This document shows, one piece after another, positions 30,274 to 48,234 of a DNA stretch of 64,000 nt (its first letter is position 1; each line of letters begins with the position of its first letter). A program made the position numbers and the translations under genes. The DNA is from Pseudomonas phage PaBG: sequence record KF147891.1; one strand, written 5' to 3'. The notes beneath the pieces are model-generated. The model was not told where the DNA came from. It ran no database searches and was given only the letters and a program-made list of their open reading frames with translations.

Positions 30274-30327
30274 AACAACCTCTCGGGTGAGAGCAGGGTG
30301 AGCGAACTACGCCCACCCTGCTGCGGC

Positions 30328-31650: not shown

Positions 31651-31723
31651 GTTCTGAGTCCTCATTAACCTAAACTAAGTTTGTAACCGTAATGCTGGAT
31701 GCAGCGTGTCGAACACGCAACCA

Positions 31724-32614: not shown

Positions 32615-32625
32615 AGATTCACCTG

Positions 32626-32997
32626 TTAGGTTTTTCGCCCTAACTCAGAAGGGTCCGTCCCCTCAGTTATCAGCATGTAAGGACCCTTGTTGTAAGCGGG
32701 CGCTAGCATTTTCCGTTTACGTTCCTTTTCCTTCTGCGCCAAGGCTTCGCGGCGCACCATTTCTGGATCGTCCAACTGGACGCATTTACTCGGTTTGGTT
32801 TTCCTGGCAGCTTGCGCCGACGGAATAGTTCGAGCTTTGACTGGGTCGTCGTACTCGTATGTTGGTATTTTGTTTACGGAGATTTCCTTGTCACTCGGCT
32901 TGTCGCGCTTACGCAGCGCTTTCGCCAGCTTCGCCTGTTCCTGCTCCTCACGGAGTCGTTTGGCTTTCGCTTGTGCTTTGGTCAGTCTCTTGGTCAT
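32626..32997 (-). CDS. hypothetical basic protein
   Basis: Start at MTKRLTKAQAKAK. K/R/E-rich. It overlaps the end of the secreted-protein gene by about 50 nt, so one of the two boundaries is uncertain. Confidence 0.35.
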   Translation of the reverse strand: MTKRLTKAQAKAKRLREEQEQAKLAKALRKRDKPSDKEISVNKIPTYEYDDPVKARTIPSAQAARKTKPSKCVQLDDPEMVRREALAQKEKERKRKMLAPAYNKGPYMLITEGTDPSELGRKT

Positions 32998-33310
32998 GCC
33001 CTGTCTCAGCCATGATGGTAGAAAAACACGACGGTGCAAAGCCGCCGCATTGTTTACGCAACGACTCCTTCTGCTTATGGCTAATAGCGATGATGTCGTG
33101 TGCGTGCTCCAGGTACGTCGCAACATTTGGCGAGTTGTCTGCGATGAAGCCCCAGAGCTTCCCGTGCTCTACTACAGCTTCCGCTGGAGCGGGAAGATCG
33201 TTGACCAGCACCAGTTTTGCCATGGTGTCGGTCGGAATGCTCAGGTAATACTGGTCGGCGAGAGCAGGCTGTGCTGAAACAATCGCCAGTGCAATAATCA
33301 GATTGCGCAT
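32948..33310 (-). CDS. secreted/periplasmic protein with cleavable signal peptide
   Basis: N-terminus MRNLIIALAIVSAQPALA followed by DQYY is a classic Sec signal peptide; 120 aa. Confidence 0.5.
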   Translation of the reverse strand: MRNLIIALAIVSAQPALADQYYLSIPTDTMAKLVLVNDLPAPAEAVVEHGKLWGFIADNSPNVATYLEHAHDIIAISHKQKESLRKQCGGFAPSCFSTIMAETGHDQETDQSTSESQTTP

Positions 33311-33375
33311 GTTCGAGTCCTTGAAACGATGAGTGGACCTCTCGGTCCACTCGGTTGAGCCTTTCGGCCGCTAAC

Positions 33376-33588
33376 TTAGCCCCACGTGGTGCGTCGTCCG
33401 GAACTGCCCAGTTGGGTCAGTTTGTCGTTCATGACGACGCGGTTCGCATTACGAGGTGCCTTCTTTACCTTGGACGAAGTACCTTGAGGTACCTGCCCGG
33501 TAGTTTGTCGAATGTGCCTCTCAAGGAGAAGAATCTCCCGTTGAAGTTCATCGAGCGTTGGGTCCGCCACAAACTCATCGGCACTCAT
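33376..33588 (-). CDS. small hypothetical protein
   Basis: 70 aa with a GGGGAGACG Shine-Dalgarno. Confidence 0.45.
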   Translation of the reverse strand: MSADEFVADPTLDELQREILLLERHIRQTTGQVPQGTSSKVKKAPRNANRVVMNDKLTQLGSSGRRTTWG

Positions 33589-33645
33589 ATCGTCTCCCCA
33601 TGACGGTTGTGGAGAGGCGAGCCTTAACCCGCCTCTCGTGGCGGA

Positions 33646-34071
33646 TTAGTTTGCAGCTTGCTTCGACGCGGCCTTGGCTGCCGGCTTGGCAGTTGGCTTG
33701 GTGGCTTTGGCCGGCAGCGGCTTGGCCACGGTCTTCTTGCCGACGCTCGGCTTGGCTGCCGGCTTGGTGGCTTTAGCCGGCAGCGGCTTGGCTACTTTCT
33801 TGGCTTCGGGCTTGGCAGCCGGCTTGACTGCCGGAACCTTCTTCACCGGCTTGGCAGCCACGGTGTTCGCGGCCTTGGTGGCAGCTTGTGCCTTGGTCAG
33901 CACGGCTTGCACGCCGTTGATGGCCTTGTCGAGTTCGTGCTGGGCGGCAACCAGTTTCTTCTCCAGTGCCGCCACGTTCTTCACGGCGCGAGTGTAGTTG
34001 CGACCGGCGGCGTCCAGTTCTTTGCGGACAGCTTTCGCGGAGGTCAGAGCTTGTTCGATTTTCTGAGTCAT
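33646..34071 (-). CDS. histone H1 / AlgP-like protein (coiled-coil + AKPxx repeats)
   Basis: Start at MTQKIEQALTSAKAV with an AAAGGAAC Shine-Dalgarno. The C-terminus has repeated KPAAKP / KPLPAKATKP units. Confidence 0.55.
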   Translation of the reverse strand: MTQKIEQALTSAKAVRKELDAAGRNYTRAVKNVAALEKKLVAAQHELDKAINGVQAVLTKAQAATKAANTVAAKPVKKVPAVKPAAKPEAKKVAKPLPAKATKPAAKPSVGKKTVAKPLPAKATKPTAKPAAKAASKQAAN

Positions 34072-34150
34072 GTTCGATGTTCCTTTATGTTGGTATTCAA
34101 ACTGTGCGCCACATGCACACATCGAGTGGCACCCGAAGATGCCACTGAAT

Positions 34151-34375
34151 CTATGCAGGCTGGGCAATCGTGTCCGCTGCGGCGAGAACCGCGTCTACAA
34201 ACTTTTTGCGTGCCCGTTGTTCAAGCAGGTTTCTCTTGGCGTGGGTGGTGTCCAACTTCTGGAGTTCCTCCAACTTCACCAGTTGTGCCCAAAGAAACGT
34301 GGCTTGTATAGGTCCGAGTTGGCATCGCACACTTCCGTTGGTGCTATCGAACGTCACTGTTACATGCTGCGTCAT
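34151..34375 (-). CDS. small hypothetical early protein
   Basis: Start at MTQHVTVTFD after the conserved leader GGTTACGGACTTAGTTGAGGTTAAG of repeat copy A. It lies directly downstream of the early promoter. Confidence 0.5.
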   Translation of the reverse strand: MTQHVTVTFDSTNGSVRCQLGPIQATFLWAQLVKLEELQKLDTTHAKRNLLEQRARKKFVDAVLAAADTIAQPA

Positions 34376-34500
34376 CTTAACCTCAACTAAGTCCGTAACC
34401 ACTATCGCTACAGCACATGCTGCTAACGTGATGTCATTATAGCATACCGGCGGTACCCACGTGAAGGCGTTTAGTGGTTATGTTTTTAGCTCAGGTATTT
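34376..34500 (-). repeat. early promoter cassette, copy A (sigma-70-like TTCACG-N18-TGcTATAAT plus conserved leader)
   Basis: -10 TATAAT at 34441..34436, -35 at 34465..34460. It shares conserved blocks with 38078..38200 and 44775..44910: TAACCTCANCTAAGTCCNTAACCA, ACCGGCGG and GGTTATGTTTNTAGCNCAGGTA. Confidence 0.55.
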
Positions 34501-35367
34501 GACGTACCGACTTACGGTGCTGCGAATCGCGTTGGCTTCTAATGCTTTACAGATGAAGTGGATCATCTTGGTATCTGGTTTCCCAGGCACCAGCTTCGAC
34601 AACTTGATCGGCATGATGTCTCGATGAATCGTAACCAGACGCCGGATGAGGCGGAACCGTTCGCGTGCTGCCTCGAAGTTTGCGCGTTGGGTCTTGTTGA
34701 GCACTGAGAGGTCAGCGTCCTCGATACGCTTCGACGTAGCCACGAGTTTGACGATAGCCGCAGGGCCGATTGCTTCGACGCCTGGAATGTTGTCCACCTT
34801 GTCACCTTGCATCATCAACATGCACGGGATGCGGCTTGGCTTAACCAGATAGTGCTCAGCGCAATTCTTGCGCGTGATTTCCAGGTAGTCTTTAGTGTCC
34901 TGCTGGTATTTCAGCAGAGTCACCTTGCCCTTGTCGAGAAGCTGGGCCATGTCCTTGTCGTTGCTGACAATCTCGACCTCCATGTCAGCTTCAACACCCA
35001 GGCGAGTCAACGTGCCGATGATGTCATCCGCCTCGACGCCAGCTTTGTGTACCACCTTGATCCCCATTGCGGTCAGCAGATCATACATGGGCTTGCGCTG
35101 CGGTATCAGGCGAGCTTGCTGCTCAGGGTCTTTCTCTCGATTGCCCTTGTATGCCTTGAATATCTTGTGGCGGTGCGTCGGTGCTTTGCGGTCCATGACG
35201 AACGCAATGTGCGTTGGTTGGCGAGCCAACACGACACTCACCACGATGTTGACGACGCCTTTGATTGCGTTGGTGTGGAACCCTTTCGAGGTCACCAGCT
35301 GAGGTACGGCAAAGAAGGCACGCATCAACACGTTCGAGCCGTCGAAGATCAGGAGCTTCTGTTTCAT
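34486..35367 (-). CDS. 5'-3' exonuclease / flap endonuclease (FEN, T4 RNase H / Pol I 5'-exo family)
   Basis: LLIFDGSNVLMRAFF, AFVMDRKAPTHRHKIFKAYKGNRE, GVEADDIIGTL and IVSNDKDMAQL match the FEN motifs. ATGA coupling with the upstream gene. Confidence 0.8.
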   Translation of the reverse strand: MKQKLLIFDGSNVLMRAFFAVPQLVTSKGFHTNAIKGVVNIVVSVVLARQPTHIAFVMDRKAPTHRHKIFKAYKGNREKDPEQQARLIPQRKPMYDLLTAMGIKVVHKAGVEADDIIGTLTRLGVEADMEVEIVSNDKDMAQLLDKGKVTLLKYQQDTKDYLEITRKNCAEHYLVKPSRIPCMLMMQGDKVDNIPGVEAIGPAAIVKLVATSKRIEDADLSVLNKTQRANFEAARERFRLIRRLVTIHRDIMPIKLSKLVPGKPDTKMIHFICKALEANAIRSTVSRYVKYLS

Positions 35368-35654
35368 TGGATGGTGTACCACTTTGGTATGTACATGCGC
35401 CGACGTGCGTTCGCCTCAATCAGGAAGAAGTCTCCGTCATCGGAGAGCACTTCTATCTCACCGAGAAAAGCTGGAACGCACCGTTGGGATAGGCGGATGT
35501 TGCGGATGGTGTTGTTGTCGCTCTCAGCGATTGCGCGTGCATACTCCACCCAATGCTCAGGTGTTTTGCACGCGAATCCCTCGACAGTGATCACCACTGG
35601 CTGCGGTGGTTGAATTACGACAACCATCAACAGCGCAACCAGAAAGAGTCTCAC
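35364..35654 (-). CDS. small membrane-anchored protein
   Basis: N-terminal transmembrane segment MRLFLVALLMVVVIQ; 96 aa. ATGA-coupled at both ends. Confidence 0.5.
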   Translation of the reverse strand: MRLFLVALLMVVVIQPPQPVVITVEGFACKTPEHWVEYARAIAESDNNTIRNIRLSQRCVPAFLGEIEVLSDDGDFFLIEANARRRMYIPKWYTIQ

Positions 35655-36064
35655 GGCTGAGCCTGCAAGGCACGCTCCCAGAGCAACGTCTGCGGGCCGG
35701 CCTTATCGAAATAGTTGGGAGAGCTGTACATGACCTTGGCGTCCTGTACGAACTCGATCACGAACAGCGTGCCGTTGAGGGTGCGAATAGGCGCATACCC
35801 GAGAACGTCGAGCGGGTGGGTGTTGTTCAGGAAGCGGCAGCGATTGGCCTTTCGGGCATCACGCACGAATTGCACAAACTCTGCGCTCTGGTTGTTGCCG
35901 GCGAGAGCAACGATGGCTTTGGCGTCCACAGAGGCATCACACACGATGGCATCGGGATTACCCGTGTCGGCAAAGGCAGGTATCGGCGTGAAAGACGAAT
36001 CGCCTTTGGGTTGAGTAGCGCAAGCAGCAAGCGCAATGGTAGCAAGCAAAGCCAACTTTTTCAT
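35651..36064 (-). CDS. lipoprotein
   Basis: Start at MKKLALLATIALAACATQ, a lipobox of LAAC followed by the lipidated Cys, with a GAGGAATAAC Shine-Dalgarno; 137 aa. Confidence 0.6.
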   Translation of the reverse strand: MKKLALLATIALAACATQPKGDSSFTPIPAFADTGNPDAIVCDASVDAKAIVALAGNNQSAEFVQFVRDARKANRCRFLNNTHPLDVLGYAPIRTLNGTLFVIEFVQDAKVMYSSPNYFDKAGPQTLLWERALQAQP

Positions 36065-36065
36065 G

Positions 36066-36287
36066 TTATTCCTCGTCCGAATGTTCTGCAATTGTTTGTG
36101 GCGTGATCATGGCCACCTGCACCCAATGAGCGATGACCAGAGTAACGACCAGAGCTGCGCACAGTGCGAGCCTTGGAACCGACGGGTCGGGCGTCTGTTC
36201 AAGCACGCCGAAGATAATCAGTAACGCCATCAGGTACATCATGGCGTAGTAGCGGTGTACGATAAACTTCAGGCTTGGTCGGTTCAT
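36066..36287 (-). CDS. small two-TM membrane protein (holin-like)
   Basis: 73 aa with two hydrophobic helices and a charged C-terminus (AEHSDEE). No clear Shine-Dalgarno. Confidence 0.4.
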   Translation of the reverse strand: MNRPSLKFIVHRYYAMMYLMALLIIFGVLEQTPDPSVPRLALCAALVVTLVIAHWVQVAMITPQTIAEHSDEE

Positions 36288-36300
36288 GTTCGTGTGATGC

Positions 36301-37110
36301 CTAGAGAATGTTCCATATACGATCGTGGATAGACCACAGGGCGAAAGCCTCGGGTTTGGCTTTCTTTCTGTGCCTGTTGATCACTGCTGGGATGTGAGGC
36401 ACGTTGCGTTTCGAGTGAGCGCGTCGCGCCTCTTTGTAGCTATTGTATTCACGGCTCGGCGGGTAGCCATCGAGTTCGATGGTGTACGTCGCCTTGTCCT
36501 TCTTGTCGAGCCGATCCTGTGCGTCGTCATGCAACGTCGTGAAGTAGTTGAGACGGTTGCGGTAGCGACCACGAGTTGCAGCCACGCGAGCCTCGTATTC
36601 CCGCTCCAGCGAATCGAGCTCCTCGATCATCTGCGCGTGCAGGTCAGCCTTCAGGTTGGTCAACGTCTTCGGATCGAGCGCTGCAATGTACTCAGCAAAC
36701 GCCAGATCAAGTTTGCGCTGGTTGGGCTTGCACCAGTGAGCCAGTGCATCAGAGAACGAGCCGACAAACAAGCCGCCTGCAAACTCACCAGACATTCGGA
36801 AGACCCCGACTGCCCACTGGGTGGCTGCGTTCTTGATCGGCAGGTCGAAGCCCTGTGGCGGGGCATTACCGCGGAACAGGGCGAACACCAGGTCGCTGTC
36901 GAACGGCCGCAGCTTGAACACTGGGCTCGGCTTACCGCGCTGCGCAAACACAGCATCTACGCACACGGAAAACGGCTCGTCTAAGCGAAGGTCTTCCCAG
37001 TAGTTGTTTGGCCAGTCAAGCGGAGTTCGCGCCTTGAGGAGAGCACTCTGGCCGAGCCTGTTCAACAGGGCGGAGTGCGTTTGCGCAACCGAGAGAGACT
37101 TGAGTTTCAT
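36301..37110 (-). CDS. hypothetical protein
   Basis: 269 aa with a GAGGGTTACGA Shine-Dalgarno. It is adjacent to the membrane-protein cluster, but no lysozyme motif was recognised. Confidence 0.5.
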   Translation of the reverse strand: MKLKSLSVAQTHSALLNRLGQSALLKARTPLDWPNNYWEDLRLDEPFSVCVDAVFAQRGKPSPVFKLRPFDSDLVFALFRGNAPPQGFDLPIKNAATQWAVGVFRMSGEFAGGLFVGSFSDALAHWCKPNQRKLDLAFAEYIAALDPKTLTNLKADLHAQMIEELDSLEREYEARVAATRGRYRNRLNYFTTLHDDAQDRLDKKDKATYTIELDGYPPSREYNSYKEARRAHSKRNVPHIPAVINRHRKKAKPEAFALWSIHDRIWNIL

Positions 37111-37153
37111 TCGTAACCCTCAAAAGGCGACCCGAAGGCCGCCCAAGCGTATG

Positions 37154-38077
37154 TTAGAAGAGGAGTGTCCAGACGCAGCGCTCGGCGTCATACGTGGCGT
37201 ACTTGTGCCAAACGCCAGCGCCGTCTACGTCTGTCTCTTTTACAGTCCACAAGATCGTGGCGTCGATCATGCCGTGCTCACGTTCGTGGCGAGCCATCAG
37301 GCCGCGCACGCTCTTGACCGCAGTTGTGCGCAGAGGCGTCTTGTCATTGTTCGATCCGAGCACCAGACCGTACACGCGCGTGGCGTCATTCTCTTCCTGC
37401 CACTGCGCCTCTTCCGCATGAATCAACTGCGCCTGTTGTGCGGCCCACTGTTCGATCAGCTTTTTCCGCTGGGTGCGCCACTCCTCATCCAGCTTCTGGA
37501 GTTTGTGGTCACGATGCACGGTCACCGACTTGTTCATCTTTGGTAGCAAGCCCGAAGTCTCTTCGGCCATTTGTTTGCGCACCAGCTTTATCAGGTCAGC
37601 GTGCGAGGCGTTGATGAACTCGTACAGGCAATGGTCCCAGTCGCCCATGAAAACGTGGGCTTGTTCGTTGTTGTTGCTTACGTCAACCACAACCCAGCCG
37701 TACTCATTCATGTTGGTACTGTTGGGATTGACACACATGGTGGGCGCCAATGCAGCGCGCTGGTGAAGTGAGTCACTCCACGGAAACACGGAAGCGGCAC
37801 CACGAAGTTCGCAGTTGCTCGGCATCAGGTAGCGAGTGTGCGACCAGAGCGAACGCCAGAAGGCGTGGACAATGTCGCCGTCGATGTTGTACCAGCGGTC
37901 CCGCGTTGGGAAGCCGATTGGGGTACGCAGGTCGAAAGCCGCCTGCTCTGGTGCTTTCGTACCGTGGTAGCCTGCACGAACCAGATTGCCGTCAGGCAGT
38001 GCGAACACTCCCATCAGCTCGCACAGGCTTTCCGGAGTTTCGTAACCGCTAGTGTCTACAGTCGCACGTTCAGTCAT
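37154..38077 (-). CDS. hypothetical early protein
   Basis: Start moved to the second in-frame ATG (MTERATVD), 6 nt after the GAGGTTAGAT of the conserved leader, to match copy A. The track start at 38089 lacks a Shine-Dalgarno. The gene is driven by promoter copy B. Confidence 0.5.
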   Translation of the reverse strand: MTERATVDTSGYETPESLCELMGVFALPDGNLVRAGYHGTKAPEQAAFDLRTPIGFPTRDRWYNIDGDIVHAFWRSLWSHTRYLMPSNCELRGAASVFPWSDSLHQRAALAPTMCVNPNSTNMNEYGWVVVDVSNNNEQAHVFMGDWDHCLYEFINASHADLIKLVRKQMAEETSGLLPKMNKSVTVHRDHKLQKLDEEWRTQRKKLIEQWAAQQAQLIHAEEAQWQEENDATRVYGLVLGSNNDKTPLRTTAVKSVRGLMARHEREHGMIDATILWTVKETDVDGAGVWHKYATYDAERCVWTLLF

Positions 38078-38200
38078 ATCTAACCTCATCTAAGTCCATA
38101 ACCAATATACAATACAAGCATGATGCTTGCCCGTGCTCAGTATAACACACCGGCGGATGAGTGTCGATGGAGATAGCGGTTATGTTTATAGCGCAGGTAA
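38078..38200 (-). repeat. early promoter cassette, copy B (TCGACA-N17-TGtTATACT plus conserved leader)
   Basis: -35 at 38165..38160 and -10 at 38142..38137, read on the reverse complement. See copy A for the shared blocks. Confidence 0.55.
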
Positions 38201-38230
38201 CGACAAACCCCGACACTAGGCCGGGGTTTG
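38201..38230. terminator. bidirectional terminator hairpin
   Basis: ACAAACCCCGacactaggCCGGGGTTTGTTT. A near-identical hairpin occurs at 44066..44100. Confidence 0.45.
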
Positions 38231-38233
38231 TTT

Positions 38234-38392
38234 GATCACAGTTCGCGCAGTTCGCGCTGGATTTCACGATCAGCAATGCGGCGCTCCGCTCTATGGCAGA
38301 GGGTCTTGAGTTCGCGCCCGTAGCCGATGCTACTGAACGGGCGACGACTCCAGAACTCGCCGGGTTGTTTGCTGCCGTGTTTGGTTCTGCTC
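38234..38392 (-). CDS. small Arg-rich protein (52 aa)
   Basis: Hand-translated: MSRTKHGSKQPGEFWSRRPFSSIGYGRELKTLCHRAERRIADREIQRELREL. A GGAGAG Shine-Dalgarno lies 7 nt upstream. It is not in the ORF track because it is under 60 aa. Confidence 0.4.
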
Positions 38393-38403
38393 ATGGTGGT
38401 TCT

Positions 38404-38431
38404 CCGAATATGACGGGAATGTCATATTCGG
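38404..38431 (-). promoter_or_regulatory. perfect 11-bp-arm inverted repeat overlapping the RBS of the 52-aa ORF, preceded by an 8-codon leader ORF
   Basis: CCGAATATGACgggaatGTCATATTCGG. The tiny ORF MTNRTIRI (38422..38448) has an AAGGAGGT Shine-Dalgarno, and its stop codon lies inside the 5' arm. Confidence 0.45.
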
Positions 38432-38465
38432 ATAGTACGGTTGGTCATAGCGGACCTCCTTGGTG

Positions 38466-38951
38466 TTATATCACGTTGCCGACATCGATGTTCTTCTGCG
38501 ACGCGAAGTCAGCAGGTCGCTTGTACTGTTCCTGCGGAATGTGACGGCCGTCTTCGTCGAGGTAACCCCACTCGTACTCTTTGGGCTTGCGTGGATGAAC
38601 GATGATCGTCCAGACGCCGCCCTTGGGGATACTGATGATGCGATGATAGCGCAGCCGTGCGATGTTGCACCAGCGGAACGCGGTGTGCAGCACCTCGCGA
38701 GTCACAGGCTTTTGACAATCGCAGTCGGGCACAGTGACGACCTGCTCCTCGACATACCAGCCTTTGACAACCATCGACTTGAACCCGTACGGGTGGTTGT
38801 GATGGATGCGAGTGTCGACCATCTTGATGTGGTGCAGCCGCACGCAAAACGGCAGATTCCACTCAGGCGGTACGATGTACCAGCGGTCCATGTAGCGACC
38901 GATGTTACGGTTGCGGTGCAGACCAATCAGTGCTTTGAATTTTTGCAACAT
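38466..38951 (-). CDS. hypothetical His-rich protein
   Basis: Start at MLQKFKALIG, 5 nt after the upstream stop. The track N-terminus would overlap the upstream gene by more than 200 nt. Confidence 0.45.
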   Translation of the reverse strand: MLQKFKALIGLHRNRNIGRYMDRWYIVPPEWNLPFCVRLHHIKMVDTRIHHNHPYGFKSMVVKGWYVEEQVVTVPDCDCQKPVTREVLHTAFRWCNIARLRYHRIISIPKGGVWTIIVHPRKPKEYEWGYLDEDGRHIPQEQYKRPADFASQKNIDVGNVI

Positions 38952-38956
38952 TCTGA

Positions 38957-39472
38957 TCACCCCAGGTAATGCGCTTTGCCGCAGTTGCACGGCTTTGGCG
39001 ACACGGCCTTCTTGACTTCGGTGAACAGCTTGTTGGTGGAAGACACGGAGAAATACGCATCGGTATTCACGCCGTTCTTCTCGCGGTAGCGGCGGTTCAC
39101 ATCCGCGCTGTTGAACATCGCGCCGTACGGCCACGATTGCTGATTCGCCTTTTCCCACATCGGGATGTCGAAGGCTTCCCGCTCGATTGCGCTCAGTTGG
39201 CTGGGTGCAACCTTCTGGTCGACCTTGGCACGGTTGGCTTTCAGCAAGCGGCCGTTGTCGGAGACCATCATCATTGCAGACATTTCGATCTTGCTATTGA
39301 TGATGGTGTACGAAACGCTGTCTCTCGACTCCTTGCGGATTGCAGGAACCTTGAACCAGGTGTCGCCGGTGAATTGGTGCTCAGGAATTTCCGGGCAGTA
39401 CCAGTTACGCATGAACACATACAGGACGGAGTTGAACTCCAAGCCCTGCGGATTGTCGTGTACATAGATCAT
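38957..39472 (-). CDS. hypothetical protein
   Basis: ATG at 39472 with a GAGGTAACG Shine-Dalgarno; 171 aa. Confidence 0.5.
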   Translation of the reverse strand: MIYVHDNPQGLEFNSVLYVFMRNWYCPEIPEHQFTGDTWFKVPAIRKESRDSVSYTIINSKIEMSAMMMVSDNGRLLKANRAKVDQKVAPSQLSAIEREAFDIPMWEKANQQSWPYGAMFNSADVNRRYREKNGVNTDAYFSVSSTNKLFTEVKKAVSPKPCNCGKAHYLG

Positions 39473-39981
39473 CACGTTACCTCAAATGGGAGGAAGACAG
39501 GCCGACGGCCAGCTCCGATAAAGAGCGCGCACGGGTCCATTGAATAGGAGTAGTGCGCGTAGTTCGTGATGCGTCTAACTTCAAGCACTTCCAAGTGGTC
39601 GTACTCTTTGACGCCGTTGTTGAAACGCAGGCCGTTGTACACCTGGCACGGCTGCACTTCGATCAGATGGTGAGAGTTCAGGCGGACGTGGCGTATCGAG
39701 GTCATGAACGACACGATCTGCCCATTCGACTCCCGCATCCGAAGCGCGTAGGCTTCACTGCCGAACGCGCCTATCTGGATACGCACAGCAATCTCGCCGT
39801 CTGGCCCAAGCACGCGATGGACGTGGTTGTTGGGTTTCGACATAGCGAGTTCGCTGACACGAATCGGTGTGCCATTCGGGCGGAGCACGAAGCATCCGCC
39901 GCAAATGGTGTTCTGACTCAGAGGCATCGGGCGCAGCGATTGCAGGTTTACGCCTTTGTTGAAGCCATTGGTGAGCGGCAT
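39472..39981 (-). CDS. hypothetical protein
   Basis: Start at MPLTNGFNKG, 4 nt after the stop of the topoisomerase gene; 169 aa. Confidence 0.45.
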   Translation of the reverse strand: MPLTNGFNKGVNLQSLRPMPLSQNTICGGCFVLRPNGTPIRVSELAMSKPNNHVHRVLGPDGEIAVRIQIGAFGSEAYALRMRESNGQIVSFMTSIRHVRLNSHHLIEVQPCQVYNGLRFNNGVKEYDHLEVLEVRRITNYAHYSYSMDPCALFIGAGRRPVFLPFEVT

Positions 39982-39985
39982 GATG

Positions 39986-41602
39986 TCAGGCAAACTCCAG
40001 GCCAGACTTGTTCTTGTCAGGGTTCTTGAGGTACGACTTGACGCGAGCTTCGGTGTCACGCGCTGCTCGGGCACCCGGGGCCTTGAGGTCTTTGGCGAGC
40101 TGCTTCAATTCGTCCTTGAGCTCCTTGATCTTCTCCTTGAGCGCGGCCGCTTCCAACTTGGCAAGCTGGCGAACTTTTCGGTCGAGGATGATGATCGCGT
40201 CTTCGACCGGAATCTTCAACGCCTTGGCGAGTGCTGCGTTCGGGTCGTTGCTCACCAAAACTTTCGGCAATGCCTTGAGCAGTTGCTCCATGTTCTCGAC
40301 GGCGAACAGGTAGACCTCGTTGATGTGCAGGTCACGCTCAGCGCGCTTGGTCAGATACTTGATCAGCCGCACTTCCAGCTTGGTGCGATAGTTGATCCAC
40401 TTGGTGAAGAAGTCCACGTAGTTCAGGTACTTGAACTCGTTCGCCTCTTCCGCCTTACGGATCGTGACACCCAGGCGGTAGTTCACGGAGCTGGTGGTTG
40501 CCTTCTCAACGGCTTCCACGATGTCAGCGAAGCGATCCTCGCCGACGTTGCGACCGCACTCGACGATGAACAGGGCGCCGTACGGACCAGAGCCCTTCGA
40601 CTTCTTGCCCTGCTTGGAAAAGGTCTTCTTCACGCCGTTGATGGCGCTCAACTTCTCCAGGGTCTTGTCGATGGTCTTGGTCGACGACAGGCCTGCGGGT
40701 ACGAACGAGCGAATCTGGATCGTGCGGGTTTTGAAGTCCGCATTCATCAGCGGTGCGTACACGATGTTGCCGCGGCCGGTCTTGAGCATTTCGGCGAACT
40801 GGCTGCCGGCAGTGATGTCCTCGCAACCGAACGGGTGCTGAATCTTCAACACCTTGGCGAGTTGCTTGGCGTTGAACTCCTTGCCGTTCAGCATATCGAT
40901 GACGACGCGCGCCACAGACTTGAACGAGAAGCTCGGGTTGCCAGCGCGCACGCCGTACGCAGGTGCAGGCACGTTGCCGTTAAACAGCACGTACGGGAGC
41001 AGCGCAGGCAGGAACAGCGGGATCACGTCGTCGCCGGAGAAGTTGGGGACTTTCGGCACGACTTCCAGGTACTTGGTGTCCAGCAGGAACATGTGCGAGA
41101 ACTTCGACATCCGCGCTTCGGTGTAACGCTGTGCGGCTGCCGGGTTGATCGGAGTACCCCAGTTACCCTGACCATCGACAGCAGGCGGCATGGTGTTCGC
41201 AATCGTCACCATCGCACCGTATGCTGCGGCGTCGCCGTGCGGGTGGTACTTACCGATGGTGTCACCGACAGTACGTGCCGACTTCTTGTAGCCGCTCGAC
41301 GGACGCAACGACAGACCAGCGAGCGACCAGAGCAGCGAACGGTGAACTGGCTTCAACCCGTCACGGATGTCAGGCACAGCACGGTCTTCAACCACGTAGC
41401 TGCCGTAGGTGAACATGGCTTCGGCAGTGTACTGATCGATGGTGGTGGTCTGCACGGTGTTTGCTTTCAACGGAAAGCGGTCTTCGGCATGCAGTACCTT
41501 GCCTTTGCCTTTCTTCACCTTCTTGTTGCTGACTTCAATCTGCACGTCAGCAGCAGCAGCGCCGCGGGTTTTTTCTTTCTTGGTTTTCTTGACCTTGGCC
41601 AT
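39986..41602 (-). CDS. type II DNA topoisomerase, DNA-cleavage subunit (GyrA/ParC N-terminal / T4 gp52-like)
   Basis: HRSLLWSL...KKSARTVGDTIGKYHPHGDAAAYGAMV matches the GyrA catalytic-tyrosine region KSARIVGDVIGKYHPHGD. Confidence 0.85.
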   Translation of the reverse strand: MAKVKKTKKEKTRGAAAADVQIEVSNKKVKKGKGKVLHAEDRFPLKANTVQTTTIDQYTAEAMFTYGSYVVEDRAVPDIRDGLKPVHRSLLWSLAGLSLRPSSGYKKSARTVGDTIGKYHPHGDAAAYGAMVTIANTMPPAVDGQGNWGTPINPAAAQRYTEARMSKFSHMFLLDTKYLEVVPKVPNFSGDDVIPLFLPALLPYVLFNGNVPAPAYGVRAGNPSFSFKSVARVVIDMLNGKEFNAKQLAKVLKIQHPFGCEDITAGSQFAEMLKTGRGNIVYAPLMNADFKTRTIQIRSFVPAGLSSTKTIDKTLEKLSAINGVKKTFSKQGKKSKGSGPYGALFIVECGRNVGEDRFADIVEAVEKATTSSVNYRLGVTIRKAEEANEFKYLNYVDFFTKWINYRTKLEVRLIKYLTKRAERDLHINEVYLFAVENMEQLLKALPKVLVSNDPNAALAKALKIPVEDAIIILDRKVRQLAKLEAAALKEKIKELKDELKQLAKDLKAPGARAARDTEARVKSYLKNPDKNKSGLEFA

Positions 41603-43618
41603 TTAGTCCTCCAGACCCAGCAGACGGCGACGGTATACAGCATCTTCTGCAACGACGCCACGGAACCAGAGTTCTTGCTCGTGGTTGGCGAACGGATTGA
41701 TGCGAATGAGATTGCGGTGTTCAGGCGAGAACGCGATCGGTTCTAGGAAAGTCTCATCGACCTCACCCCAGCCCTTGATGCGAACGATGTCCTTGTCCTT
41801 GACTGCCTTGGGTGCGGCTTTACGGCACTCATCGAAGGTCATGCCACCGTAGAGTTTGCCGTCATGGAGCACAGCATACAGCGGAGCCTTGACGCACCAG
41901 ACGCGGCCTTCTTTGAACAGGTCTGGCAGCAGTCGGTAGATCGCCGCTAGGAACAGTACGGCAATGTGCCCACCATCCGGGTCCGGATCGACCAGGAAGA
42001 TGATGTTGCCAGTACGCAGATTGTCGGTCGACAGACGCGGGTTCTCAGCTTTCGGATCGAGCGTCTTGATGTCGGCGCCCAGGCTGATGAGCATGTTCTG
42101 GATTTCTTCGTGACCCAGAATCTTCGCCAGGGTCGCTTTCAGTGCGTTCAGTGGCTTACCGCCAGCACCCAGCACTTCCTGATAGTTCGCGTCTCGGGCG
42201 TCGATTGCAGTACCTGCGGCCGAGTCACCCTCAACGATGAACAGCTCGCGCTCATGTGGCTTGGCCTTGTCGGCGACAGCAAGTGCGCTCGGCAGACTGG
42301 AGCCCTTGATCGACTTCTTCGCGTCAGCCATGGACTTGACGACAGCAGCGAGTTCTTCACGGCCCTTGTTCATCACCAGTGCGCGCTTGATGATGGTCTT
42401 CGCAACGCGCTGGTTGGCTTTGAAGTACTCCTCGAACACTGGCAGCATTGCCTCGTGAACTTCGCGGTCGACCTTCGAAGCCAGCTTGTCTTTCACCTGC
42501 GAGGTGTACTGGGCGCCGTGCATACGCCAGTCAAACATACCAACCAGACCGATCAGCAGGTCAGAACCAGAGAATCCATTGCCGCCTTTCTTCTTGCCCT
42601 TGGGCTGAGTCATGTACGGCTTGATCGCAGCCATCAGGGCGCTGGTAAATCCGGTGACGTGCCAGCCACCATCGACAGTCGGCGACGTGTTCACGAACGT
42701 CAGGAAGTGGTCGGCATCCGGATGGTCAGCCCACACGACAGAGCAACTGATGTTGTCGGTCTTGAACGTCATGGGCTTGCCGATCATGCCCAGTTCGCGT
42801 TCCTCACACATTGCCTTGGGTACCCAAGCCAAGTCCTTCTTGTTCAGGAAGGTAAACGCTTTGGTCTTGCCGCCCTTGATGACCTTGAAGCGAATCTCCA
42901 GACCTGGGTTCAGGTTCGCCATGTTCTTCAACCACATGGCAATCGGCTTGGCCTGGGGCGAGGCATGCACATAATCTTTCGGCAGGGCCTTACCACGACG
43001 GGCAGACTCAGACACGACGGTCTGGTCGAGCTTGCCCGCGATGATGGTGCCGTACTTGCTCTGCTTCATCGACAGGCGCGAGGCCACGTCCTTGTCGATG
43101 CTCTTGACCTTGATCGGGTCTTTACCCTTGGTTGTGATTTCGCCTTTCGAGAACGACTGGAAGGCGCACTTGCCGTTGTACATACTCCAGACACGCAACT
43201 CCTCGCACACGGCGTTCACCGCCGCAACACCAACGCCGTGAGTACCGGCCGAAGTCTTGTACGAATCGGAGTTGAACTTGCCACCTGCGTGGGCGCGAGA
43301 GAACGCGGCCGTCATGATGGTCTCTTTCGTCCCGTCTTTCAACTTCTTGTAGTCGGTCGGGATACCGCCAGCAGCGTCGGCGACGATGTGGAAGTCGGCG
43401 TCGTAGTCGAGGATGACCTCGATCAACTTGTTACGACCGGCGATGGCCTCGTCGTATGCGTTGTCTACCTCTTCCTTGATGACACGGTACGCCATGTCAT
43501 GACCGAGGTTACCCAAGTACATCGTGGGGTTTATACGGATGCCTTGGAGGCCCTCCGCGATGACGAAGCCCTCCTGAGAGGCAGACTTCTTCCCCTTCTT
43601 GATCTTTTCCTTAGCCAT
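41603..43618 (-). CDS. type II DNA topoisomerase, ATPase + Toprim subunit (GyrB / T4 gp39-like)
   Basis: N-terminal NAYDEAIAG and THGVGVAAVNAV are GHKL ATPase motifs; FIVEGDSAAG is the Toprim motif. The stop abuts the start of the partner subunit. Confidence 0.85.
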   Translation of the reverse strand: MAKEKIKKGKKSASQEGFVIAEGLQGIRINPTMYLGNLGHDMAYRVIKEEVDNAYDEAIAGRNKLIEVILDYDADFHIVADAAGGIPTDYKKLKDGTKETIMTAAFSRAHAGGKFNSDSYKTSAGTHGVGVAAVNAVCEELRVWSMYNGKCAFQSFSKGEITTKGKDPIKVKSIDKDVASRLSMKQSKYGTIIAGKLDQTVVSESARRGKALPKDYVHASPQAKPIAMWLKNMANLNPGLEIRFKVIKGGKTKAFTFLNKKDLAWVPKAMCEERELGMIGKPMTFKTDNISCSVVWADHPDADHFLTFVNTSPTVDGGWHVTGFTSALMAAIKPYMTQPKGKKKGGNGFSGSDLLIGLVGMFDWRMHGAQYTSQVKDKLASKVDREVHEAMLPVFEEYFKANQRVAKTIIKRALVMNKGREELAAVVKSMADAKKSIKGSSLPSALAVADKAKPHERELFIVEGDSAAGTAIDARDANYQEVLGAGGKPLNALKATLAKILGHEEIQNMLISLGADIKTLDPKAENPRLSTDNLRTGNIIFLVDPDPDGGHIAVLFLAAIYRLLPDLFKEGRVWCVKAPLYAVLHDGKLYGGMTFDECRKAAPKAVKDKDIVRIKGWGEVDETFLEPIAFSPEHRNLIRINPFANHEQELWFRGVVAEDAVYRRRLLGLED

Positions 43619-43708
43619 GTTCGATTGAACTCCGTTGGTTCGGTATGAGGACTAGAGCGAAAGTGTTGGACCTGATTGCAGGCCGTACGTAAGCTGTTTA
43701 CACTTACG

Positions 43709-44041
43709 TCATTTTCGAGTTGTGGTTTGTTTGGCCTTGTCGAGTTTTGCTTTTTCCTTCTTCGCCCAGGTGTAACCAGAGTCGCCGCCCCAAAGCAGCC
43801 ATGCGATATAGCCGTTGCTGGGGTTGGCTCGATTGCCAAAATTTGCCGCACGTTTGTCCACTTCATGGCGGGCGAAGAAGGAGACCATGCGACGTATCAC
43901 AGCATCGCTGACGGTGCGACCCTGCGACAACTGGCGGGCGCGTGCCCAGCCAACCTTCGTACCTCCCCTCTTAAACTCTTTGTGCAAAGTCAAGCCAAGA
44001 GCGGCAGCACGTCGAACGGATGCAGGTGCAGTGCGAGACAT
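43709..44041 (-). CDS. hypothetical basic protein
   Basis: Start at MSRTAPASVRR with an AAAGGAC Shine-Dalgarno; 110 aa. Confidence 0.45.
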   Translation of the reverse strand: MSRTAPASVRRAAALGLTLHKEFKRGGTKVGWARARQLSQGRTVSDAVIRRMVSFFARHEVDKRAANFGNRANPSNGYIAWLLWGGDSGYTWAKKEKAKLDKAKQTTTRK

Positions 44042-44085
44042 AGCGAGTAGTCCTTTGAGGTGAGAGAAAAACGACAAACCCAGCA

Positions 44086-44469
44086 CTAGGCTGGGTCGGT
44101 CTGTTGGCGTATGAATATTGGATCGATGTGGCCTTCGATGTACCAGCACACGTCATCTGGTCGGTGTGCGGGATCGTCGTTGTCGTAACTTCGCCACTCT
44201 GGGTCCGGCCGTAAGGTTGACTTGAACAGCGAAACGTCCACTTCAAGAACGACAGCATCAGGGCCTTTGAAGAAGGCGGCGTTCAACGTATCGTCGGTCA
44301 ACACGTCCGCATCGAGCGCGAGAAACACGCGCCCTGCAACTTCGCCGCCGTCTGTGGCGCGCGGCATGTTCGGCAGTAAGCCGTCACGCAGAATTGCGCT
44401 CACGTTGTCACGATGCGTAACGTGAACAAGCACGTCTGGGATATGGTCCATGAGAGTCTTCGCCGTCAC
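44086..44469 (-). CDS. hypothetical acidic protein
   Basis: 127 aa; ATGA coupling with 44466..44768. Confidence 0.5.
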   Translation of the reverse strand: MTAKTLMDHIPDVLVHVTHRDNVSAILRDGLLPNMPRATDGGEVAGRVFLALDADVLTDDTLNAAFFKGPDAVVLEVDVSLFKSTLRPDPEWRSYDNDDPAHRPDDVCWYIEGHIDPIFIRQQTDPA

Positions 44470-44768
44470 AGGTCTATGATGGCGCCGACAATCGGCATTT
44501 GGAGTTCGTCGTCTTCGTGGCAGCCCATGCTAGCCATCCAGTCGAGAACTTCTTCCTCGGTCAGGATGCCAGGCTCAGATGCGCCCGTTTCACGCAGCAG
44601 GTCAGGCAACACAGCCGCAGACAACGCCTCAGTTACATGCTTGCCATTCATGACTTCGGCATTGCCGTCAGCCAGTTCAGCCGTCAGGTGCAGAATCAAG
44701 CTGGACGGCAACAGGCCATCGACATCACCAGACTCCAGTGCCGCTTTGACGTGTTCGTAGTTGGACAT
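44466..44768 (-). CDS. small hypothetical early protein
   Basis: ATG at 44768 with a TAAGGAGT Shine-Dalgarno; the track start is TTG. Driven by promoter copy C. Confidence 0.5.
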   Translation of the reverse strand: MSNYEHVKAALESGDVDGLLPSSLILHLTAELADGNAEVMNGKHVTEALSAAVLPDLLRETGASEPGILTEEEVLDWMASMGCHEDDELQMPIVGAIIDL

Positions 44769-44774
44769 GTGCAA

Positions 44775-44910
44775 ACTCCTTAAACGTAACCTATGAGCGT
44801 AACCAATATAGTTGACACAATCTAGGTGTCACGCATCCAGTATATCACACCAGACACACGCAGACAAGCGCCTTAATGGTTACGCCCATAGTTGACGTAT
44901 CAGGACTGCT
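44775..44910 (-). repeat. early promoter cassette, copy C (TTGTCT-N17-TGaTATACT)
   Basis: -35 at 44867..44862 and -10 at 44844..44839, read on the reverse complement. It shares blocks with copies A and B: GTAACC...GTAACCAATATA, AGTATATCACACCAG, GGTTACGCCCATAG. Confidence 0.5.
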
Positions 44911-45778
44911 GGGCCACACCGTAAACGATGTCGTCGATCACGTCGCTGAGGTACTGGCCAGGTTGCAGTACCACATGCACGCAGCCCTGTTGCTTGGCAC
45001 ACGACTCCAGGAACTTGTCCCAGTTGGTGTACATCAAATCGAGGAAGGCTTTCGGGCTACCGCGGTTCAGATAGCGCAGCATGTAGTCATCCTTCTGATC
45101 TGCGGTCGGGTAGACCAGGATGAAGTCGAAGCCTTGTTCTTCCAGCTCGTCGCGCACCTCGAAATGGCTGGACACCAGAGTCACATCGTTCTTGGGTGCA
45201 ATCTCCCGAATGTGGGCAATGTAGTTGTTCGGGAAGTCATCCTTCGGGAACTGCGACGAATCACTGTCGGAACAGACCAGGCCCTTCAGGTGACACAGTG
45301 CAGACTTGCCAATGCCAGGAAAGCCGCTGATGATCACCGGGCCTTTTCCAGCAGCAGTAGCAGCCAGCCGGCGGATGCGACGCTTGCCAGAAGTGAGCTG
45401 ATTGCTGCGGCCGCCAGCACTTGCAGCAGCCTCTTCGGAGTCTTCGGAGTCTTCGTCCTCTTCTTCGCCTTCATCGGATTCGTCTCCGGAATCGGCGTCT
45501 TCGTCAGAGTCATCCTCTTCTTCCTCTTCCTCGCTGTCATCGCCGCCGCCGAGGTCTTCATCTTCCTCTTCGGCATCACCGTCGGCTTTGGGCTTCTCTT
45601 TTTCCTTGACCTTTTTCTTGGCCAGTTCGAGTTCCTCAGCCTTGCGGTTCTTTTCGATCTGCTCCAGTTCTTCGTCACTGGGTAGCAGTTGTTGGGCGCC
45701 ACGACCAGCAGTTTGATCGACAGTGCCGTACATGTTGGAATTGGCCTCGGCGGAACTGAGCGGTACGTTGATCTTCAT
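44900..45778 (-). CDS. P-loop kinase (NMP / polynucleotide-kinase-like) with K/acidic-rich N-terminus
   Basis: A TAGGAGTTCC Shine-Dalgarno. Walker A PVIISGFPGIGKSALCHL. The N-terminal region reads KKKVKEKEKPKADGDAEEEDEDLGGGDDSEEEEEEDDSDED. Confidence 0.5.
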   Translation of the reverse strand: MKINVPLSSAEANSNMYGTVDQTAGRGAQQLLPSDEELEQIEKNRKAEELELAKKKVKEKEKPKADGDAEEEDEDLGGGDDSEEEEEEDDSDEDADSGDESDEGEEEDEDSEDSEEAAASAGGRSNQLTSGKRRIRRLAATAAGKGPVIISGFPGIGKSALCHLKGLVCSDSDSSQFPKDDFPNNYIAHIREIAPKNDVTLVSSHFEVRDELEEQGFDFILVYPTADQKDDYMLRYLNRGSPKAFLDLMYTNWDKFLESCAKQQGCVHVVLQPGQYLSDVIDDIVYGVAQQS

Positions 45779-45786
45779 TGGAACTC

Positions 45787-46836
45787 CTACGCGCGTGCGA
45801 TGATTTCGGGTTTGACCTCATCAGGCATCCGCGCTATCAACTTGTCGCGGGCCTCGTCGGTGTATTTGATTTCCTTGAGCAGCTTCTTGAGTTCGATGTC
45901 CAGGCCAGGCTTGAAGCAGATGCCGAGCAGCGGGCATTCGTCGTAGAAGTTGATTTCGTCCTCGTACTGAGCCAAGCAACTGCACGGCTTGGCTTTGATC
46001 GCGGCTTTTGGATCACGGGAGAAGAACGACTGCACGCCAGCGCGGAATTTCTTCTTCTCGTCCTTGATGACCTGGGCGATGCGGCGATCCCAAGTTGGCG
46101 ACCAGTGCTCGGCGTACTCGAAGAACTCGAATGGGTTGTCGCGGCTCAGGTACAACAGGCTGAACCCTTTGACGTCCATCTTGTACTTCTTCTTGAGGAC
46201 ATAGCAGTACGTCGGAATCTGCTTAAGGTGAGCCTTGTGCGGCAGATGCCCTTTCTTGTTTATCTGGAACTTGGTTGTGGTCTTGTAGTCAGCCACCCAC
46301 CAGCCGCCGCCATCGAGTTTGACGATGGCATCGATGTGGCCCTTAAGGCCTTTGTACTTGATGCACTTCTCGACGTATTCCATCGGGTGAGAGCACTTCG
46401 GGCATTTGTTGTTCACCGTGTTCTTACGGGTCAACTTACCTTTGCGCCAGCACACGCCGTTTTCGTCGAACAGGTCCTGCGCGTCGTGCCGCTTCTGGCA
46501 GGTCGGGTTCTTGCACTTCCAGTCACCCCACACCTTGCCGCTTTGGCCGATGTAATACTGGATGTTCTCATGCGCGGCCGTCCCGACTGAGGTGAAGTAG
46601 CCGCCACTAGTGGACATACGCCCCTCGAAGTAACCCAGGTGAGCACCCTTCGCAAGACGGAGCATCGTGAGAATCGAGCAGGTCGGGAACGAACTGGGTC
46701 GATATTCCGGACCGCGCCCATAGCTAACAGTGACCGACTCATCCATTGTCTTCTGGTACAGACGGCCGAACATCGAGGCAATCGTACCCTTTGGCTGGAG
46801 GTCGAATGCCTTTTTAGGTTTTAGGTTTGCGAACAT
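45787..46836 (-). CDS. PD-(D/E)xK nuclease with zinc-ribbon and C-terminal Cys cluster (Cas4/RecB-like)
   Basis: Start at MFANLKPKK with an AAGGCAGAGG Shine-Dalgarno. GHIDAIVKLDGGGWWVADYKTTTK carries the D...D/E-x-K nuclease motif. It also has CQKRHD...CPKCSH...C and a C-terminal CSC...C...C cluster. Confidence 0.45.
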   Translation of the reverse strand: MFANLKPKKAFDLQPKGTIASMFGRLYQKTMDESVTVSYGRGPEYRPSSFPTCSILTMLRLAKGAHLGYFEGRMSTSGGYFTSVGTAAHENIQYYIGQSGKVWGDWKCKNPTCQKRHDAQDLFDENGVCWRKGKLTRKNTVNNKCPKCSHPMEYVEKCIKYKGLKGHIDAIVKLDGGGWWVADYKTTTKFQINKKGHLPHKAHLKQIPTYCYVLKKKYKMDVKGFSLLYLSRDNPFEFFEYAEHWSPTWDRRIAQVIKDEKKKFRAGVQSFFSRDPKAAIKAKPCSCLAQYEDEINFYDECPLLGICFKPGLDIELKKLLKEIKYTDEARDKLIARMPDEVKPEIIARA

Positions 46837-48229: not shown

Positions 48230-48234
48230 TACTG

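Follow-up and report, generated by a model that had tools for sequence, protein, structure and literature searches.

Repeated promoter cassettes have been described in T4-type phages as PeSLs (promoter-early stem-loops), both for their layout and for the recombination that takes place between their copies (PMC2839356, PMC4122927). A second relevant arrangement is that of the T4 genes e, soc, 49 and I-TevI, in which the ribosome-binding site is masked by a hairpin containing the gene's own promoter (PMC3014915). The present analysis deals with a family of promoter cassettes in a 64-kb stretch of DNA from Pseudomonas phage PaBG (KF147891.1; this whole stretch is hereafter called the window), three copies of which, A, B and C, had been noticed earlier from the sequence alone (the original prediction). 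The cassettes resemble PeSLs in being intergenic units of about 100 bp with an upstream stop codon in an A/T-rich stretch, a sigma-70-like promoter, small stem-loops and, towards the 3' end, a Shine-Dalgarno sequence (SD) with its ATG; small unknown genes stand behind many of the copies, and recombination between copies adds or removes modules. They differ in belonging to another phage lineage, that of the Lu11-related jumbo phages and not the T4-type phages, and in having an unrelated sequence. The stem-loop of a PeSL is a G/C-rich terminator or attenuator, whereas the terminators associated with the cassettes are separate, lie outside the unit and occur in 7 of the 19 copies aligned here. 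The whole promoter of the cassette is also enclosed by a long-range inverted repeat, which is not described for PeSLs; this bracketing repeat at a rigid spacing is a new feature, beyond what was described for those elements.

The T4 genes e, soc, 49 and I-TevI are the nearest mechanistic precedent for a promoter placed within an SD-masking hairpin. In these genes the hairpin encloses the promoter between its strands and the gene's own transcript lacks the 5' strand, while transcripts from upstream hold both strands and mask the SD; the position of the promoter between the two strands recurs in all full copies of the cassette. However, the internal promoter of T4 is late (gp55), and its hairpin is short and serves a single gene, whereas the promoter of the cassette is of the sigma-70 type, its loop measures 64-67 nt and the unit is repeated. 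The real SD also lies outside the arms in about half of the cassette copies, which is a further difference.

The three minus-strand elements are located in the window where the original prediction had placed them, and A, B and C (labelled wA, wB and wC, as are D and E below, when compared with copies from other contigs) constitute one family of 114-117 nt; ahead of the genes at 34375, 38077 and 44768 the minus-strand sequences can be aligned with one another for about 125 nt. The promoter strings TTCACG-N18-TGcTATAAT, TCGACA-N17-TGtTATACT and TTGTCT-N17-TGaTATACT are exactly as had been quoted, and the downstream genes have the reported lengths of 74, 307 and 100 aa; no Pfam match was obtained for the proteins that they encode, for which host-takeover roles had been proposed. 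The leader GGTTAYGGACTTAGWTGAGGTTA reported for A and B is exact in both, supplies the SD and was matched in none of 100 shuffles. The three blocks that all copies had been said to share are present letter for letter in A and B, while C has only the core (CGTAACCA / TGGTTACG, the TG-extended -10 and the spacing) within other outer sequence. Two further, decayed members of the family, D and E, are found in the window. D was recovered as a 3-mismatch match in a search of the window for the leader; E retains ATAGTGGT...ATAGTTGAGGT and turns out to be the fourth promoter, TTGACT-N18-TGcTACAAT at 17330-17359, which had been listed apart from the other three. The single-arm motif GGTTA-N6-TAG-N3-AGGT occurs 10 times in the window at no more than 2 mismatches, as compared to 1.6 expected, and 8 of the 10 are cassette arms. 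What had been overlooked is the inverted repeat, the rigid spacing, the small hairpin at the predicted start site, copy D and the existence of a clade-wide family.

The window encodes a portal protein, a large terminase, DnaB, a 5'-3' exonuclease and both topoisomerase II subunits. Its nearest phages in GenBank are jumbo phages, namely Pseudomonas phage Lu11 (portal, 55.8%), HRDY3 and the Erwinia Y3-like and Dickeya JA-like groups; Lu11, HRDY3 and the Erwinia Y3-like phages have the closest portal, terminase and topoisomerase, and topoisomerase II is up to 70% identical to that of the Erwinia Y3-like and Dickeya JA-like groups. Megablast of the 34-46 kb region against GenBank phages gave no match, and a search with one protein located the phage of the window as short contigs in Logan assemblies SRR26421926/7 also. 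Locus searches with two single proteins yielded no usable match, and relatives were reached via DNA pattern scans of IMG/VR and JGI metagenomes. A covariance model (R1) built from 13 copies set the true copies, scoring 58-113 bits, apart from chance pattern matches and found more copies; L009, L010 and most of L019-L056 were rejected by the model as chance matches. About 21 distinct copies are found in related uncultivated jumbo-phage contigs of several lineages, among them a syntenic relative of about 72% nucleotide identity, which includes a 266-kb contig, and more distant contigs of 31-278 kb. The final alignment, on which the family-wide counts below are based, holds 19 copies. In three lineages the gene that precedes the A-type copies is that of the exonuclease; D-type copies follow the same open reading frame (ORF), the last codons of which, LPELSSLLF, form the 5' arm in L054b, an ortholog of D that is a full copy.

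Every copy returned by a scan for the arms only, in which the promoter was left unspecified, also has the promoter. The arms had no match in 185,579 bacterial and archaeal genomes, and distant blastn against GenBank phages, T4-type included, revealed no similar cassette, only a chance 24-nt match. Model R1 had no match in 90 kb of Lu11, and comparison of window positions 30000-46000 with Rfam 15, at E up to 1, gave no relevant match. These searches suggest that the family is, so far, confined to an uncultivated clade of Lu11-related jumbo phages.

The promoter is the best-conserved part of the cassette, with the family consensus TTGnAC-N17/18-TGnTATA(A/C)T. The invariant columns between the arms are those of the promoter (T32, T53, G54, T56, A57, T58, A59 and T61), that is, a T of the -35, the TG, the TATA and the final T. 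All 19 aligned copies carry TGnTATA(A/C)T; variants are TGcTATGAT in D, TGcTACAAT in E and a copy one base short in L061. The match of the -35 to TTGACA is weak (3-4 of 6 letters in the window copies and 3 of 6 in rA), at a spacing of 17-18 nt. TGNTATAMTGR occurs three times in the 64 kb as compared to 0.11 expected, and a consensus promoter scan of 30-50 kb placed A, B and C among the four best sites and as the sole sites with TG before the -10. The proposal of repeated cassettes around a near-consensus sigma-70-type promoter with an extended -10 is borne out by this invariance, and the identification of the elements as such promoters is well supported by consensus and conservation. In the window copies a short hairpin, of a sequence differing by copy, lies 4-13 nt past each -10. 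Such a 5' hairpin is seen in wA, wB, wC, wD, wE, rA, rB and L014/L017b, and starts 1-3 nt after the predicted start site in 9 copies. D-type orthologs hold a hairpin in the same place with different stems (GCGTGT/ACACGC in D, GCTGC/GCAGC in the close relative and TGCGTC/GACGCA in L054b). Small palindromes are also present in the spacer that separates the -35 from the -10 (ACTGnnnnCAGT; TACCGcCGGTA in wA).

The first and third of the blocks quoted originally, TAACCTCAnCTAAGTCCnTAACCA and GGTTATGTTTnTAGCnCAGGTA, are inverted repeats of each other and form two arms which bracket the promoter, the transcribed strand reading ACCTgAGCTAAaaaCATAACCACTA ... TAGTGGTTAcGgaCTTAGTTgAGGT. The arm consensus is ACCT-N3-CTA-N7-AACC ... 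GGTT-N7-TAG-N3-AGGT, 25 nt each. The arms of A are 76% complementary over 25 nt; those of B are 83% complementary over 12 nt by the repeat finder, and 17 of 25 when counted over 25 nt. The blocks ACCT, CTA, (T)AACC and TA and their complements are fixed, while positions 5, 7, 11-16 and 23 vary freely. The distance from arm to arm is 64-67 nt, that from the 5' arm to the TG 25-27 nt and that from the -10 to the 3' arm 30-31 nt, and the axis of dyad symmetry, at column 59, is within the -10 hexamer; outside the promoter, the sequence between the arms is just about 50% identical between copies. Pairing in register involves 74.6-79% of the cells, a share that is 21-41% after a shift of the partner by 1-3 columns. 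The number of paired positions is 14-22 of 25 for 18 copies out of 19; L013b has 10 in the gapless register, owing to a 1-nt deletion in its 5' arm. The arms of wC and L017a form 22 of 25 pairs including perfect runs of 15-19 bp, with different sequence in the two (GGGCG/CGCTC vs GGCCG/CGGCC). The 3' arm of A and B has as its outer end the SD, GAGG, which lies opposite ACCT; in wC the SD is 13 nt further out, and the complementarity stretches to it (TCCT/AGGA, TCCT being the last codons of the upstream gene). An upstream ORF on the same strand is found in all 19 copies, ending 0-118 nt before the 5' arm or inside it, and in A-type copies its TAA stop is at arm column 9. In the 7 copies with a strong intrinsic terminator, this lies a few nt before the 5' arm. 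As a side observation, GGTCTnnCAGAT or a variant of it is conserved right before ACCT in L013a/b, L041a, L060, L011a, L015 and L017c, and the shared sequence thus runs about 12 nt past the 5' arm in many copies.

Two classes of copies are distinguished by the position of the start codon. In the first, it is 5-8 nt past the 3' arm and the arm supplies the SD; SD and ATG stand directly at the 3' end in wA, wB, rA, rB, L014, L017b and L018, and wC has its SD in the extended arm. In the second, the gene has its own SD 16-47 nt past the 3' arm, often preceded by a AGTTTGCA box. This box, in the form AGTTTGCA(C/G)(A/G), is seen at many loci 6-45 nt past the 3' arm, right before the real SD where the start codon is distant. 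In rB and L015 its letters, and in wB related letters, encode the N-terminus M(S/T)E(K/R)(F/A)A, and the box may have been left over from the 5' end of an ancestral coding sequence, or may be a signal in its own right. At 2332-2345 of L015, CTG stands where the ortholog of the close relative has ATG (M-S-E-K-F-A-Q), with an in-frame TAA four codons upstream, which may mean that the start is non-canonical or that the gene is dead.

Recombination between cassettes is evident in one clear case. The contig L013 has the order cassette b, 102-aa gene (ORF102), cassette a, 315-aa gene (ORF315), and L041 has a single chimeric cassette ahead of the 315-aa gene, which agrees with b in its upstream flank and 5' half and with a in its 3' half and downstream flank. 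The switch from b to a is found between the -10 and the 3' arm, a zone that corresponds to the mini-circle crossovers of PeSLs (PMC2839356). Cassette C, along with its 100-aa and 127-aa genes, sits between the stop codon of a 292-aa gene and a terminator, which directly follows the homologous gene in the syntenic relative. C and these two genes are missing from that relative, an insertion/deletion difference, and the 110-aa gene that lies beyond is also missing, a second and separate one. In its terminator-ended layout, inserted between a gene and its terminator with the look of a self-contained unit, C with its small genes is like a lambdoid moron (PMC2839356); morons, however, have no conserved flanks, whereas in the cassettes the promoter unit is the conserved, recombining part. 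The chimera and the absence of C directly support the earlier suggestion that the cassettes promote recombination and mosaicism. The question of whether the cassettes mark module boundaries, which an alignment of related phages was to address, is answered in the affirmative for C and for L013/L041 and in the negative for A. There, nucleotide similarity to the relative reaches no further than the 3' arm, but identity of 43-54% persists between the small proteins that follow and their counterparts, and synteny continues, so that cassette A, as judged by this comparison, is no mosaic junction or module boundary. The coordinates of the copies in the window, with their parts and neighbouring genes, are given in Table 1.

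Table 1. Cassette copies of the window, their parts and the adjacent genes and hairpins
Feature	Position	Strand	Remarks
Cassette A, full copy	34380-34496	-	model R1, 94.6 bits
A 5' arm	34472-34496	-	includes TAA stop (34486-34488) of 5'-3' exonuclease gene
A -35 TTCACG	34460-34465	-	
A TG	34443-34444	-	
A -10 TATAAT	34436-34441	-	
A small hairpin	about 34406-34428	-	
A 3' arm	34380-34404	-	holds SD GAGG, 34381-34384
74-aa gene	34151-34375	-	start 5 nt past A 3' arm; 45% identical to equivalent in relative
Cassette B, full copy	38083-38198	-	model R1, 89.9 bits
Intrinsic-terminator-like hairpin	38203-38231	-	perfect 10-bp stem, then TTTGTCGTT; ends 4 nt before B 5' arm
B 5' arm	38174-38198	-	
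B -35 TCGACA	38162-38167	-	
B TG	38146-38147	-	
B -10 TATACT	38139-38144	-	
B hairpin CAAGCAtcaTGCTTG	within 38114-38134	-	
B 3' arm	38083-38107	-	holds SD GAGG, 38084-38087
307-aa gene	37154-38077	-	start 6 nt past B 3' arm
Cassette C, full copy, longer arms	44777-44905	-	model R1 match 44784-44898, 91.1 bits
C arms	44874-44905 and 44777-44808	-	32 nt, 81% complementary
C -35 TTGTCT	44862-44867	-	
C TG	44846-44847	-	
C -10 TATACT	44839-44844	-	
C hairpin TGACACctagattGTGTCA	44813-44831	-	
C SD AAGGAG	44776-44781	-	within extended 3' arm, facing TCCT of last codons of upstream gene
C AGTTTGCA box	44770-44777	-	
100-aa gene	44466-44768	-	after C
127-aa gene	44086-44469	-	after C; the two genes end at the next hairpin
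Terminator-like hairpin	44077-44097	-	
110-aa gene	43709-44041	-	past that terminator, before topoisomerase II promoter motif
Copy D, decayed	31668-31790	-	
D 5'-arm relic	31766-31790	-	inside codons LPELSSLLF of upstream 296-aa ORF
D -35 TTGCGT	31747-31752	-	N18 to extended -10
D TGcTATGAT	31723-31731	-	overlaps TGA stop of upstream ORF
D 6-bp hairpin GCGTGTtcgACACGC	31704-31718	-	
D 3' arm GGTTACAAACTTAGTTTAGGT	31668-31688	-	exact
D own SD GAGGA	31659-31663	-	downstream of arm
D start codon	31648-31650	-	downstream of arm
Copy E, decayed	17276-17381	-	model R1, 11.1 bits; family member over 17276-17359; no 5' arm
E terminator-like hairpin	17359-17381	-	
E -35 TTGACT	17354-17359	-	
E TGcTACAAT	17330-17338	-	
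E hairpin CATCGtcagCGATG		-	
E 3'-arm relic GGTGCCGCTGATAGTTGAGGT	17276-17296	-	
E AGTTTGCA box	17229-17236	-	further downstream

The best explanation, offered tentatively and with a confidence that falls a little short of even, is that of a promoter cassette akin to the PeSLs, in which the folding of the arms into a hairpin would be restricted to read-through RNA. The cassette promoter, made largely independent of the -35 by its TG extension, would be used by the main RNA polymerase of the host, perhaps early. The cassette's own transcript would start at a point enclosed by the arms, in most cases with a short hairpin at its 5' end, and would carry the 3' arm alone; in wA and wB this arm would be the ribosome-binding region (GAGG, with the start codon 5-6 nt on). 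Read-through RNA from the upstream gene would carry both arms and would form a hairpin of about 115 nt burying the 3' arm, the outer block ACCT/AGGT acting as an anti-SD/SD pair. The read-through gene may then be masked from translation, or the double-stranded stem may be cut by RNase III, or both. The approximately 117 bp common to the copies would further provide homology for inserting, deleting and swapping the gene blocks that they head. It is possible, though rather doubtful, that the cassette is in general a portable "transcript-origin discriminator", through which a gene is expressed from its own start and masked or cut when read through, and which at the same time serves as homology for the exchange of such genes among jumbo phages.

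The hairpin is thermodynamically plausible, as evident from the folding of the isolated 117-nt RNA: for nearly all 19 copies the minimum-energy structure joins one end to the other and includes the outer ACCU/AGGU pairs. The mean fold z is about -2.3, with values below -2.3 in 11 of the 19 copies and the strongest in wC (-5.15) and L017a (-6.7). Variation is concentrated at the unpaired columns (5, 7, 11-16 and 23), and column 22 toggles between A and G facing an invariant U. The duplex of a copy's own arms has -19.0 kcal/mol as compared to -16.1 for cross-copy duplexes (permutation p = 0.001, 15 copies). RNase III sites in T7-type intercistronic hairpins span roughly two helical turns, largely double-stranded and tolerant of internal loops; the arms of the cassette, as a candidate site, have 25 nt and 17-22 pairs, but a 6x6 internal loop is present in most copies, and the predicted fold is stable in most. 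The predicted probability of an unpaired SD is lower in read-through RNA than in RNA from the cassette's own promoter for wA (0.19/0.47), wB (0.37/0.58), wC (0.39/0.57) and rB (0.24/0.56). With 13 copies, the observed covariation was reached by 13 of 500 and 19 of 500 shuffles, a signal that faded at 19 copies.

Several results weigh against a hairpin in read-through RNA. With 19 copies covariation is not significant, as evident from 9 double-changed pairs against 7.2 in shuffles (32/500) and from a covariation score that was reached by 69 of 500 shuffles; the comparison of own with cross-copy arms, when made at the variable positions, gives p = 0.19. Since covariation fades at 19 copies and at the variable positions, RNA structure is not claimed as proven. 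G.U and A.C cells carry no overall strand signal (24 vs 37); at helical positions the counts are 10 vs 2, yet 7 of the 10 are in one column. The long stem is dropped in long-context folds of rA, rB, L016a and L013b. The SD lies outside the arms in L011a/b, L013a/b, L015, L017a, L041a/b, L054b, L060 and wD, and its predicted exposure barely differs between the two RNAs in this second class (L013a 0.64/0.62, L015 0.85/0.76). SD masking as a universal function of the cassette is rejected because about half of the copies are of this kind.

The remaining points against the read-through hairpin are equally points in favour of its main rival, in which the arms act as DNA, as a mirror-oriented pair of operators for a phage or host regulator. 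Such a protein would bind at about -66 to -42 and about +27 to +51, and looping or a block to polymerase would switch the whole promoter class. Precedents are GalR at OE and OI of the gal operon and AraC at its distant half-sites, which similarly have conserved sites on either side of the start at a fixed distance; the gal operators are each palindromic, whereas the arms of the cassette are each asymmetric and mirror one another. The two arms are equally conserved (33.8 and 34.8 bits), mostly through fixed blocks with freely varying positions between them, as would suit operators. An RNA hairpin has no need of a rigid spacing or of a dyad on the -10, and both hold in the 19 copies despite about 50% identity elsewhere. 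Terminators just before the 5' arm in 7 of 19 copies imply that most upstream RNA would not reach the arm, which is kept there nonetheless. D-type copies of three lineages have a decaying 5' arm and yet retain the 3' arm, and a lone 3' arm, in D and E, would be explicable as a single roadblock site. Operators would further agree with arms that are never seen without the promoter and with the lack of significant covariation or a strand-specific wobble signal. On the other side, there is no candidate protein, the block centres (2.5, 9, 19.5 and 24.5) fit no simple 10.5-bp repeat, and a loop of about 90 bp from centre to centre would be energetically costly. Operators also leave unexplained the 15-19-bp runs of wC and L017a, the extension over the SD in wC, the A/G toggle of column 22 and the SD/anti-SD outer block. 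As covariation is not significant, the data fit both the read-through hairpin and mirror-oriented DNA sites; we consider the latter unlikely, though to be taken seriously.

That the cassette is a plain repeated promoter plus leader, the inverted repeat being a functionless relic of the origin of the first cassette, seems improbable. The 5' arm would then be kept as an A-rich upstream promoter element and stop region and the 3' arm as a leader and ribosome-binding region. This agrees with a 5' arm that is A/T-rich, is located at the position of an UP element and carries upstream stops, as in the PeSL layout (PMC2839356), with an SD within the 3' arm in many copies, and with D and E, which function or at least persist without the 5' arm; the lack of significant covariation reported above is also in line with it. 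However, separate constraints on the two arms would not hold three mirrored, exactly reverse-complementary blocks in about 21 copies (75-79% pairing in register vs 21-41% slid), nor would they give rise to the new stretches of complementarity in wC and L017a.

A miniature inverted-repeat transposable element carrying a promoter is a far more remote explanation, although the terminal inverted repeats, the uniform length of 114-117 bp and the several copies per genome are suggestive of one. Correia (CREE) and ERIC elements are likewise intergenic repeats of about 100-150 bp with inverted ends that can supply promoters and, once transcribed, form hairpins bound or cut by RNase III (PMC2649163, PMC2229807), and the Correia elements in particular give both promoters and RNase III-sensitive hairpins (PMC2649163). 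In contrast to these, the cassette is phage-borne, its promoter is central and not made by its ends, and it has no target-site duplication, as no consistent direct repeat of 2-8 nt was found at offsets 0-3. Every copy has the orientation of the genes on both sides of it, orthologous positions are kept in phages just 72% identical, no copy was found in the bacterial genomes scanned, and the sole rearrangement observed is homologous recombination inside the cassette and not at its ends. The likeness of ATAGTGGTTAC to the Correia terminus TATAGTGGATTAAC was judged coincidental, being at the inner end of the arm.

An inverton, in which a recombinase flips the 64-67-bp segment between the arms, is scarcely credible: inverted repeats around a promoter are the defining layout of invertons, but the repeats here match imperfectly (about 75%), synapsis would have to take place over a very short segment, the promoter has one orientation relative to the flanking genes in all of the approximately 21 assembled copies, and a flipped promoter would fire into the end of the upstream gene. 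An integron attC-like site (AAC...GTT boxes around a variable centre) was rejected in view of boxes at the inner ends, no integrase in view and a central crossover, and a single-stranded promoter of the F-plasmid Frpo or N4 type in view of a -35 and -10 in the loop and not in the stem.

Some other features of the window were recorded along with the cassettes. The motif GTGTAAAC / CTGTAAAC is similar to a 16-nt element that the annotation of phage Lu11 calls a "putative middle/late promoter" (aaCTGTAAAT). It is located at 17259-17266(-), 26317-26324(-), 43696-43703(-), 47457-47464(-) and 56139-56146(+) in the window, and also at about 6590 in L008 and about 2645 in L004; its count in the window is not above chance (5 vs 4 expected). 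It lies 78 nt before the topoisomerase II start in window and relative alike, and in the D-type copy of the relative it is found in the spacer between -35 and -10, where the window has TGcTATGAT. At 4570-4651 a 12-bp inverted repeat, ATCTTGACCTGCA / TGCAGGTCAAG, with its halves about 40 nt apart, gives a weak model match (15.9 bits, E = 0.23) and is unrelated in sequence. Back-to-back terminator-like hairpins at 48232-48253(+) and 48304-48323 lie near the start of a long run of minus-strand genes. Very long low-complexity coding repeats, acidic (Asp/Glu) and lysine-rich, occur in minus-strand ORFs at about 18950-19400, 25000-26480, 30570-31000 and 45430-45570 and dominate the direct-repeat scan of the window.

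To our knowledge, no transcription programme has been described for the jumbo phages of the Lu11/Y3 group. A recognisable cassette that marks predicted starts of the host polymerase would give a handle on their early genes, and supplies parts of about 117 bp for testing. The chimeric cassette extends the PeSL principle, in which shared promoter cassettes serve as gene-shuffling linkers, beyond the T4-type phages, and bears on the movement of accessory genes among giant phages. Should the arms act as DNA, they would point to a regulator controlling a whole promoter class; should they act as RNA, control by a promoter within a hairpin would be generalised to a modular element. A transcript-origin discriminator, if true, would mean that a device known to date only from a few individual T4 genes is used in modular form across whole genomes.

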